NCBI GenBank assembly: GCA_964016885.1
Contig: OZ024755.1
Coordinates: 7,998,001 to 8,062,000 of the forward strand
DNA: 64,000 bases
Reading direction: 5' to 3'
Origin: Eledone cirrhosa
Lineage: Eukaryota
The first letter of the stretch is position 1; each line of letters opens with the position of its first letter. Shown here one piece after another: positions 4,226 to 7,339 of the stretch. The translations under genes were made by a program, and so were the position numbers. The notes under the pieces were generated by a model, which was given only the letters and a program-made list of their open reading frames with translations, ran no database searches and had not been told where the DNA came from.

Positions 4226-5625
4226 TCTACACATTGACGGTGTTGCCGTTGCCGCAATCATGATTATTCATATATTTTCGTTCTTTTTGTTATAAAATAT
4301 GACTGCTACTCTAGATTCTAGAATAAAACCTGCGGAGATAATGGCTTATAACTTAGGCACAAGCCACTTTAACAATTTTGCCAATCCAACACTTGGTACT
4401 GGTAGATTCTCCGTCGGTTTCGACGATGAACATACGGTTGTTCAATCAACTTAATGTCCGGTTCGCTGAATTATAGCATTTCCCTTTCCTTCTGACGAAC
4501 CCATACAAGAAACGAATATATTTTAAGAACTCATAAAGATAACTTAGGAGAAAGGTCAACTTTGTCTTTCATGCTTCGAGTTCAATAAATAAATATTAGT
4601 CCAGAATGATTGATTCATGGGATTGCTAGAGCATCAGATGAGTAGTTTGGCAGCATTCGTTCCAACTCTTTGAACCTTTAGTTCAAATCCCATTGAGGTC
4701 AGCTTTCGTTTTCATCCATTCGGGGCTGGAATACCAGATAACGTACCAGTCTAGGGTGGGGTTGATTGGTGAAATTGGTAGAGCGTCACTCTAGAAGCTG
4801 TATGGCATGTGTTCCTCTTGTTTGCGTTGTGAGCTCAAATCAAGTAGTCTTACTTGATTGGTAGACTTATTCCGACGATCAGTTTAACCCTAGCACATGA
4901 GCCTTGATTGTCTTTAGCCGAATCCACTCTGTTGCAATTATTCAGGCTCGGTTGACCGATTGACTGAATGCTCACCGTCGATTCTGACGGAAGATCAATC
5001 ATCATCTTCGTTTACCTTCTCTCCATAACCATATCTAATCGTTTGTATTTGTTTCCATCAATATTTGTTTTTATTATCAGCCAGAAGAGGCAAAAATCAC
5101 GACTATGTTCCATTCCTGATTCAATTTTGACACAGACATTAAATCAACGAAGTAATAGGTTTAGTCAGATTCTTGCACCGAAACACTGATTCTAGTCTAA
5201 ATTCTCGTCATTGATTAAGTGAACTGAGATTTTTTCTAGACAAGTGTTGTTTCCGAAACACAATTTACTAAATATGGATGTATTATATTAATGTCAGGAT
5301 TGTGTTATTTATCGGATATTGACAATAGTCTGGCATTAATCCAGGATTTAATAATACCAACCACTTTGGATATTTCTAAGGAAGCTTGGAAACTATTTGT
5401 TTCCTAATAAACTTAGAACTGAAGTTGAGGTGGCAGAGACGTTAGAGCGTCGGACAATGTGTCTTGCGGTGATTGTTTCGGCTCTTTGTGTTATGAGGTC
5501 AAATCTTGCCGAGGTTAACTTTGCAATTCATCCTTTCAATGGAGATAAAATGAATTACTAGTCCAAAGCATTGGGTTGCCAGAATTTTAATCTTTGTGTT
5601 CTGAGTTCAAACCCTGCCACGGCCT

Positions 5626-5739
5626 ACAAGTAAACAACATAGAAGGATAAAAGCAAACCGAAGATAGGAAAATAAACCATGTTGCTTGTTTATTTTCCTA
5701 TCTTCGGCTTGCTTTTATCCTTTTATGTTGTTTACTTGT
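5626..5739. repeat. Hairpin with 52-bp arms and 10-nt loop
   Basis: 5626-5677 is the reverse complement of 5688-5739 with two non-Watson-Crick positions. Confidence 0.9.
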
Positions 5740-5763
5740 CCCCCTCGCCTTACGCGAATTCTG

Positions 5764-5865
5764 GTCCCAATAACTTTTTTTAGTTATTGCTCGCACCAAC
5801 CTGAGGTATCTGATTTCTAATGCGATGAAATACCAATGATGGTTGGAAAATCACTGACGAAGGAC
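5764..5865 (+). ncRNA. Structured RNA motif copy 1, permuted/pseudoknotted hammerhead-like
   Basis: Pairings GTCC/GGAC, CAATAACT/AGTTATTG, TCGCA/TGCGA, CCAACC/GGTTGG, GGTAT/ATACC, TGATTT/AAATCA; core elements CTGACGA 5854-5860, GAAA 5827-5830, ATC triplet 5808-5810. Homologous to 32511-32611. Confidence 0.55.
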
Positions 5866-5920
5866 TATTTGTATCATATGTAACCCATGTGCAAACCACG
5901 CAGTATTCTTCTTTCTTCTC

Positions 5921-6011
<91 letters not shown>

Positions 6012-6293: not shown

Positions 6294-6679
6294 TTAACAG
6301 AAAATGTTTGAGGGAAAGAGTTAGAAATAGATTATTCACCTATTCTATTAAAGCACCATCAAATTATGCATTAATATAATCTTTTTTTGCCGAAGGTGTA
6401 ATCTTTCCCCAGCAGCCACCATTTTAAGTTGTGTGTTTGTGAGTTCCAACTACATGAAAACCTAACGAACCATCAGAAAACCAGTGAGCCGGCCTAACAT
6501 TTTAGATTAGCCTCCGGGCAACGTAGTGACTTATCAAAGAAATATTATGAACAGAAAAAAGGGAACTGGAATTGGTATTAGCAAAAATGGTAGCGTGCCA
6601 GAATTTACTCACAACTCTTTGCGTTCTGAGTTCGAATTTCATCAAGATCGTGTTAGTAACTCATTCTTAGTGGATTAAT

Positions 6680-7005
6680 AATTCTTTCTACTTTTGGCAC
6701 AAGTCCATTAATTTGAAGGAAAAATGTGAAAGTCGATTAAATAGACCCTATTGCTTTACTGGTACTTTATTTTGTCGACCCCGTAATAATGGTTTCTTAT
6801 ATAGGCACAATTCCAGCAATTTTGGGGAAGGGAAAGTCGATTAAATCGACCCCAGTGCGTAACTGGCACTTTATTTTATCGACCCTGTAAGGATGCAAGG
6901 CAAAGTTAACCTCAGCGGGATTTGAACTCAGATCATAAAGGGTCATAACTATATGCCGCAAAGCATGTGGTCCGAGGTTCTAACGAAACTCCCAAACCAC
7001 CGTCC
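6680..7005 (-). mobile_element. SINEs of the same family (other copies about 4680, 5430-5570, 25000-25170, 31800-32050, 41170-41420, 43430-43612, 53173-53287, 56520-56730, 61840-61990)
   Basis: Same core sequence as 30515-31510, in either orientation. Confidence 0.75.
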
Positions 7006-7339
7006 TTTTAGTGGGTTAGTAATAGTAAATAACAATGGCTCTTATTCGCAATCGAGTATGACTTGGTAGTCTCTACTGTGCTTCCACTAAACGTTTCATG
7101 TGCTTATGGAGTTTTGAGCAGACACAGAGACCATCTTAATATTTCCTCGCTTGATTCATCAGAATATCATATACAACATATACAAGCTTATACAACATGT
7201 TTAATTATAATAAACATATACAAGTCTTGCTGTGGGTATTTTACGAGTATCAGCTGAAACGTTCATAGGATGACTGTGAAGGAGTGATGCTAGAGCTGTG
7301 AAATCTCACATGCATTAATTTCAACTATTCTTATTAATA

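Follow-up and report, generated by a model that had tools for sequence, protein, structure and literature searches.

A permuted hammerhead motif at the 3' ends of non-coding tandem repeats in Eledone cirrhosa and its probable link to Naiad retrotransposons

Introduction

The hammerhead ribozyme was divided by Eckert et al. (2023; PMC10085705) into three blocks, C, G and S, which follow one another in the cyclic order C-G-S in types I, II and III. According to the sections of that paper available to us, the permuted type SGC RNAs (HRIMA-1 and the SGC variants), each transcribed as a single construct, cleave themselves co-transcriptionally at rates of 0.007-0.19 per min, have a short linker (typically 3 nt) between stems I and II, and require a helix between these two stems. 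Stem II, of about 5 bp, lies between blocks C and G, and in the alignment rows examined the strands that complete it and the I-II helix follow CUGAnGA on its 3' side, with no junction. Type CSG, represented by two metagenomic sequences, follows the same cyclic S-G-C-S order opened at another point. In the same sections, no type SGC RNA was assigned to the genome of a known organism, and one GCS candidate was the sole permuted case. Non-circular permutation of an RNA fold was known before from uncultured metatranscriptome and metagenome sequences and from one doubtful bacterial case.

Among animal retroelements, non-LTR retrozymes are non-coding tandem repeats with one hammerhead per unit and are tied to Penelope-like elements (PMC7229834; 10.64898/2026.07.22.740005). 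They were described as non-autonomous Penelope derivatives by Li et al. (2026; 10.64898/2026.07.22.740005), and the passages found of that paper do not describe permuted ribozymes. Retrozymes carry a type I hammerhead in units of 150-450 nt whose circles are highly self-paired, and for joining their monomers RtcB was far more efficient than self-ligation (PMC7229834, in the parts available). Naiads, in turn, are Penelope-like elements that target (TA)n and were reported, unlike other Penelope-like clades, to lack canonical hammerheads, some "core" or "half-core" cases being flagged; the same paper, as far as accessible, called cephalopod Naiads long inactive and described inverted 5' pieces in Penelope-like insertions (Craig et al., 2021; PMC8557442). 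For a Poseidon element, the available text of another study reported internal initiation and showed that insertion in vitro could proceed without cleavage (PMC11167929).

Results and Discussion

Two copies of a hammerhead-like motif in the window

The window, the whole stretch of 64,000 nt of E. cirrhosa DNA analyzed here, contains one copy of each of two repeats, named family A and family B. As judged from sequence comparison, these loci are quite probably the 3' ends of non-coding tandem repeats with a hammerhead core in the order S-G-C, whose RNA would likely self-cleave after C5810 or A32557, and the repeats are likely non-autonomous derivatives of Naiads. The features were located as follows:

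5626..5677, minus strand: inverted 5' piece of the family A element (copy 1)
5675..5927, plus strand: family A repeat copy, non-coding, 5'-truncated, ending in (TA)n, with a 96-99% match to genome copies from 5675 onward
5764..5801, plus strand: upstream strand of the putative copy 1 ribozyme
5764-5767, plus strand: 5' arm GTCC of P0, the closing helix
5768-5789, plus strand: hairpin
5791-5795, plus strand: 5' arm TCGCA of distal stem II
5796-5801, plus strand: arm CCAACC of the stem I-II helix
5805..5816, plus strand: block S, with GGTAT at 5805 (stem III), C17 (C5810) and TGATTT at 5811 (stem I)
3' of C5810, plus strand: cut predicted by analogy
5821..5834, plus strand: block G, with TGCGA at 5821 (distal stem II), U11.1 (T5826), GAAA at 5827 and the stem III arm
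5841..5865, plus strand: segment starting with the stem I-II helix arm GGTTGG at 5841, followed by block C, with AAATCA at 5848 (stem I), CTGACGA at 5854 and A10.1 (A5861), and by the P0 3' arm GGAC (5862 to 5865)
32463..32664, plus strand: family B repeat copy, non-coding, 5'-truncated, with a unit of 621-630 nt, ending in (TA)n
32510..32612, plus strand: putative copy 2 ribozyme, with the layout of copy 1
32511, 32538 and 32543, plus strand: GTCC, TCGCA and CCAACC of the copy 2 upstream strand
32552, 32557 and 32558, plus strand: GGTAT, A17 (A32557) and TGGCCT of copy 2 block S
32568, 32573 and 32574, plus strand: TGCGA, C11.1 (C32573) and GAAA of copy 2 block G
32588, plus strand: arm GGTTGG of the copy 2 stem I-II helix
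32595, 32601 and 32608, plus strand: AGGCCA, CTGATGA and G10.1 (G32608) of copy 2 block C

The unit length of family A, 527 nt, was taken from natural tandem copies. The initial annotation had described this arrangement for both copies, and every segment was found at its place on the plus strand, together with the compensatory changes between the copies (three pairs in stem I and two in the hairpin). Its suggestion that the motif marks the terminus of a mobile element was also borne out, both copies being the ends of repeats in (TA)n tracts.

A 19-mer common to both copies occurred twice in the window against 0.03 expected. A full descriptor, combining the core with stems I and III, distal stem II and the I-II helix, matched the window exactly twice, at copies 1 and 2 on the plus strand, and gave no match in 100 dinucleotide shuffles. 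The minus strand of the window had no match to this descriptor, and no Rfam family, hammerheads included, reached its gathering score in the window. Weak Rfam matches to miRNA families at 5626-5739 were explained by the inverted 5' piece (5626-5677), which forms a long hairpin with the copy 1 element, and a miRNA identity was rejected. Another abundant short repeat, SINE-like by appearance and unrelated to the ribozyme, was observed near both loci (window 5440-5576, 6676-7007 and 31000-31505).

Comparison with the known hammerhead types

The core segments CUGAnGA, GAAA and UH were found adjoining stems I and III in families A to C, and the 10.1-11.1 pair that closes stem II was present in 52 of the 60 aligned copies described below. 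The blocks do not follow the cyclic order of types I, II and III; their order is S-G-C. It had been claimed that this arrangement fits no known hammerhead type; however, it is that of type SGC as defined in the available sections of Eckert et al. (2023). Similarly, the helix CCAACC/GGTTGG, at first taken as a bridge between stems I and III, is best read as the stem I-II helix of these authors.

As in type SGC, the blocks of the window RNA are in S-G-C order, all of the core nucleotides are present, and stems I and II are connected on one side by a short linker, here of 4 nt (TTAA or CTAA), and on the other by a helix. Nevertheless, where the published RNAs have their stem II, between blocks C and G, the window RNA has a single pair, and the strands that complete stem II and the I-II helix come before block S, on its 5' side, instead of 3' of CUGAnGA, stem II entering a four-way junction after that one pair. 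The window RNA would then correspond to the type SGC ring opened elsewhere, its ends meeting in P0, inside stem II. Its predicted structure resembles type SGC in build and departs from the published family in this one feature. The order is not that of type CSG either. The hosts also differ, since the window repeats sit in an animal retroelement with thousands of copies, whereas the published SGC RNAs, in the sections available, had no genome of a known organism.

As regards the initial proposal of a new topology or an obligate dimer, the upstream supply of stem II through a four-way junction does set the window RNA apart from the published SGC RNAs; an obligate dimer is not needed because all of the strands lie within 110 nt. 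The core order had already been published, and the four-way-junction build, the animal host and the Naiad link were not found in the literature searched. In particular, no report of a link between Naiads and permuted hammerheads was retrieved in literature searches that covered few subscription papers.

Fold and covariation

The fold was analyzed in an alignment of 60 distinct copies, comprising all distinct rows, among the loci fetched up to then, that keep the upstream strand; truncated copies were left out. Over 34 named pairs, 93.2% of the cells were paired, compared with 86.3% after shuffling (reached in 0 of 500 shuffles), and pairings slid out of register reached 26-45%. Since the rows are related and fall into about ten subfamilies, these shuffle counts indicate a consistent structure and are not probabilities. 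Changes on both sides were observed in 17 of the 34 pairs: four of six in stem I, five of six in the I-II helix, five of seven in the hairpin and two of four in P0. The fraction of paired cells was 95.8% in stem I and 95.7% in stem III. The I-II helix appeared as CCAACC/GGTTGG, CCAACG/CGTTGG, CTAGCC/GGCTAG, CTGAT/ATCAG and CTCGCT/AGCGAG. P0 appeared as GTCC/GGAC and ATCC/GGAT, with just 78.8% of its cells paired because family B is one base out of register. Within families A to C, no two-sided change was found in stem III or in distal stem II (TCGCA/TGCGA), one arm of the latter having been fixed by the search pattern.

The 10.1-11.1 pair was G-C in 16 rows, A-U in 13, G.U in 12 and U-A in 11. 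It was mismatched in eight rows, six of them with C.A in older subfamilies (C10.1 opposite A11.1 in L174, L178, L179, L088, L170 and L172). T10.1 in sister copies could result from CpG decay of C10.1, and part of the U-A class may therefore not be compensatory. Among the core positions free of the search pattern, U16.1 was kept in 59 of 60 rows, in each case paired with A15.1, and position 17 was other than G in 58.

The covariation supports a model in which stems I and III are formed as in any hammerhead and CCAACC/GGUUGG ties together the far ends of stems I and II. In the same model, stem II would consist of the single pair 10.1-11.1 stacked on TCGCA/UGCGA, the 5' strand of which comes from upstream, as the initial annotation had proposed. 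Covariation likewise supports a four-way junction in stem II, in which the 10.1-11.1 pair would meet P0, the hairpin and TCGCA/UGCGA, no more than two bases being left unpaired. The layout and the co-varying helices together support the earlier description of the motif as a permuted, multiply pseudoknotted hammerhead.

Two details of copy 2 were read differently once its family was considered. The G.U and G.G previously remarked in its stem III are both present, but the G.G results from a private C-to-G change at 32580, which weakens stem III in this copy; 16 of 17 distinct family B rows have GAAATGCC, which gives a stem III of 5 bp including one G.U. The alternative helix TAGCCGTT/AATGGCTA, put forward as a switch, depends on the same private G32580, and the family sequence places a C.C mismatch in the middle of it.

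The pairing was also followed in two older families (16 copies), whose helices have other sequences (CACGAT/ATCGTG, CCAGCA/TGCTGG and CTCTC/GAGAG). Here 86.7% of the cells were paired, compared with 82.0% after shuffling (0 of 500), and the number of two-sided pairs was not above that of the shuffles (138 of 500). The strict descriptor matched 2 of 34 older or looser-family loci, one of them in another register; single old copies are missed because they are too decayed.

Connections of 3 and 6 nt link the two strands of the I-II helix with the far end of stem III, and they are shorter still in the Acropora Naiads described below. By helix geometry, such ties are a tight fit for a monomer. The same geometric puzzle was remarked by Eckert et al. 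in the available sections of their paper (PMC10085705).

Repeat families in the genome

A genome-wide search for further copies in the 3.0-Gb genome showed that copies 1 and 2 belong to two different repeat families, with 1,529 (family A) and 2,458 (family B) first-look candidates. Among the 40 candidates scored per family, the best identities were 98-100%, and the top copies of each family were 98-99% identical to one another. Both families are non-coding tandem repeats with one hammerhead motif per unit. Natural tandem copies gave units of 527-548 nt for family A and a relative, and of 621-630 nt for family B; the units of both have 43-45% G+C and are about two thirds pyrimidine, and 38-48% of their bases are paired in predicted circles. 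Both families have variable 5' ends, and inverted 5' pieces are common. A (TA)n end was found 100-140 nt beyond the predicted cut in 23 of 30 family A and 21 of 30 family B loci, six and seven loci ran on into the next unit, and one and two did neither, several of the family A loci counted belonging to one array. Insertions with such properties have been described for Penelope-like elements (PMC8557442).

The core was also kept above background, as the pattern TGCGA-N-GAAA...CTGANGA had 6,934 matches in the genome and its reversed version 12. A looser pattern with a different stem III gave 325 matches against 43 in the control and exposed older families; several of its loci (L143-L147 and L193-L198) were discarded as chance matches for want of a stem I. 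Families D and E (L132-L160) are older, have the S-G-C order with different helix sequences, and also occur as TA-flanked tandem and inverted insertions. In another older family of the same order (L131, L183, L184, L186 and L187), the junction seems, by eye, to lack the hairpin and to be three-way. A frame of 129 codons of low complexity was noted on the ribozyme strand of a family A unit (L016:1030-1556); it is not kept in family B and is likely incidental. A metagenome scan gave two matches, neither with a downstream core.

The motif in published Naiads

The consensus file of Naiads (54 records) was examined by string searches, and the 3' ends displayed were judged by eye. These searches covered 58 of 62 places with CTGATGA, 23 of 23 with CTGACGA, 25 of 25 with CTGAGGA, 30 of 43 with CTGAAGA and 38 of 81 with CGAAAC, and missed motifs broken across lines. 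The build of the window RNA was recognized at the 3' end of nine of the 54 records, from a ctenophore, cnidarians and two octopuses and including two unassigned records. Named by the following header, these are Bfor, three from Acropora, Obim and Ovul; the others stand in the Clytia part, near part 12 and near part 19, one in each place. In the records near parts 12 and 19, as well as in Acropora on one reading, P0 directly follows CUGAnGA and distal stem II reaches GAAA, which leaves no Watson-Crick pair between blocks C and G.

All eight nematode records, four of them assigned by file order, showed by eye a complete type CSG hammerhead motif at the 3' end, with the order C-S-G, a direct stem II and a I-II helix. 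One record of the arthropod part had the order S-G-C with a different junction. Permuted hammerhead motifs were thus seen by eye in 18 of the 54 records. Such a motif was absent from the places displayed of bivalve, hemichordate and fish records, and hence it may not be universal in Naiads.

By eye, Naiad_Obim and Naiad_Ovul match the window repeats in the layout of their 3' ends and share short linkers with them: the hairpin loop TTATTTTAG, TGA and, in Obim, AATGAT. Naiads and the window repeats also have in common (TA)n targets and tandem and inverted 5'-truncated insertions, features also of Neptune-type elements and so not diagnostic alone. In contrast, Naiads have an EN-RT ORF and the window elements do not, and cephalopod Naiads were called long inactive in the available text of Craig et al. 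(2021), whereas families A and B have top copies that are 98-99% identical. The window motif likely represents the ribozyme supposed to be missing from Naiad retrotransposons.

Decayed Naiads of E. cirrhosa

In this genome, a degenerate DKA pattern had three matches, one of which was a Naiad remnant. For the family of this remnant 51 matches were obtained, the longer of them being 69-79% identical, and at L228 a GIY-YIG domain in N-terminal position was found about 1.6 kb upstream of the reverse transcriptase (E 3.7e-7). No intact Naiad ORF was found among 150 scored of 1,344 candidates, the longest open frame being 298 aa. This absence agrees with the published statement on cephalopods; yet families A and B are young. 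A Naiad ORF (N-terminal GIY-YIG and reverse transcriptase, DKA) was absent from the units and flanks of families A and B, which were never seen attached to one, and elsewhere only decayed copies were met.

Among 20 decayed Naiad loci, found through the reverse transcriptase and not through the core, an S-G-C motif with the core TTGATAA was present downstream of the reverse transcriptase in three, and in decayed form in two more. Natural covariation between C3-G8 and U3-A8 is known (PMC3088659, part of the text), and sister copies found by pattern have CTGATGA. In this motif, part of stem II is contributed by a hairpin located between S and G, and the predicted structure of the motif marks it as a relative of the window RNA and not as a member of the same family. 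The ends with the U3-A8 motif lie at L206 (about 5350-5425), L223 (about 2710), L224 (about 2500-2590), L211 and L210. A search of the genome with the motif of a published octopus Naiad end gave one match, which was false.

On balance, it is somewhat more likely than not that the Naiad clade kept non-circularly permuted hammerheads, SGC with a four-way junction and CSG in nematodes, across ctenophores, cnidarians, nematodes, arthropods and cephalopods, some with the junction directly on the core, and that here the ribozyme outlived its parent in orphan retrozyme-like repeats. This would place a permuted hammerhead in animal genomes, with thousands of copies, a host and a plausible job, and it offers an answer to why Naiads appeared to lack canonical hammerheads: the motifs would have been overlooked by descriptors built on the classical order. 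The completion of stem II by a fourth strand also loosens the block rule of Eckert et al. HRIMA-1, the window RNA and the nematode CSG motifs, as different openings of one ring, form a series for the evolution of permutation.

Life cycle and alternative explanations

Families A and B differ from the described retrozymes in their SGC-order motif and their longer, pyrimidine-rich units of 527-630 nt with 38-48% of the bases paired in predicted circles; neither has a type I hammerhead or a unit of 150-450 nt. Tandem transcripts would be cut once per unit, and the two ends, still held by several helices, would be joined by the ribozyme or a host ligase into a circle of 527 or about 621 nt. A Penelope-type reverse transcriptase would then prime at nicked (TA)n on the TA-rich junction of the unit itself, about 100-120 nt past the cut, and copying would proceed through the ribozyme. 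Internal priming of this kind would account for the constant 3' end, the variable 5' truncation, the inverted 5' pieces and the tandems longer than a unit. In all intact genomic copies the cut site lies within the part that was copied, as expected for a religated circle but also for a slow or idle ribozyme.

The 5' ends of the copies were also considered. Eighty copies either begin within the 4 nt upstream of the predicted cut or have small indels at that point. About 284 others begin 1-8 nt beyond it, most of them at TAAT (as seen among the first 100 of the 364 listed). Of the eighty, 21 are family A 5' ends without C17, compared with three family A copies beginning at a matched TGA situated 9 nt upstream (from 10 of the 13 control loci). 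The difference is suggestive but confounded by a larger hot spot of microhomology between the (TA)n target and the TAAT just downstream of the cut.

The chief rival of a monomeric ribozyme is a strand-swapped dimer, in which blocks S and G of one unit would act with block C and the upstream strand of another. It would relieve the geometric tightness between the I-II helix and stem III. These two helices of one unit would form one rod, with the unit's own core at one end and the top of the partner's core at the other; tandem transcripts would cleave and isolated circles would stay quiet. Stem III is indeed nested with the I-II helix, 3 and 6 nt separating the two, and they appear as one rod in the predicted minimum-energy fold of copy 1. 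In the Acropora Naiads, stem III has 13 bp and the I-II helix about 10 bp, with one linker of 0-1 nt, dimensions that by helix geometry are hard to fit in a monomer. Furthermore, the repeats are tandem, and the minimal hammerheads of other Penelope-like elements were proposed to act as dimers (PMC4209133, in the part available). We nevertheless regard the swapped dimer as unlikely: the published SGC RNAs cleaved as single constructs (PMC10085705, in the sections available), one 110-nt unit has all of the strands, and the outer part of stem III could open as a linker.

It is also rather improbable that the fold was kept as a recognition or priming structure for a Penelope-type protein, with catalysis slow, conditional or lost in the young families. 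The reverse transcription of all intact copies across the cut site would agree with such a role, as would the single pair of stem II, mismatched in 8 of 60 rows, and the Poseidon hammerhead was dispensable in vitro, with no RNA-seq reads ending at its site (PMC11167929, in the text available). However, the catalytic nucleotides are kept in families that share no helix sequence and in Naiads of several phyla, and the U3-A8 swap retains a pair with a known active-site role (PMC3088659, part of the text). A chance resemblance amplified by the repeat can be practically discarded. The core-only descriptor did have 23 matches over 100 dinucleotide shuffles of the window, and copy number is not independent evidence; but the full descriptor had none in such shuffles, two-sided changes distinguish the subfamilies in four helices, and other families and species show the same build again with helix sequences that are unrelated.

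Neptune-type elements

Neptune-type elements, with frames of up to 1,096 aa, are present in the genome. Twenty GIY-YIG loci with long frames were fetched, of 150 scored from 10,597 candidates; their nuclease is C-terminal, and they were assigned here to the Neptune type. As autonomous partners of families A and B they were rejected, since none of the 20 had an S-G-C motif within 1.5 kb past the stop and the nearby copies were separate insertions. Mobilization of both families in trans by Neptune-type elements is a guess. Three Neptune-type loci (L111-L113, at C1:83.81 Mb, C1:145.87 Mb and C5:100.72 Mb of G000) have open frames of 844-1,096 aa, and at L113 a degenerate stretch resembling a type I hammerhead was observed about 1.1 kb after the stop.
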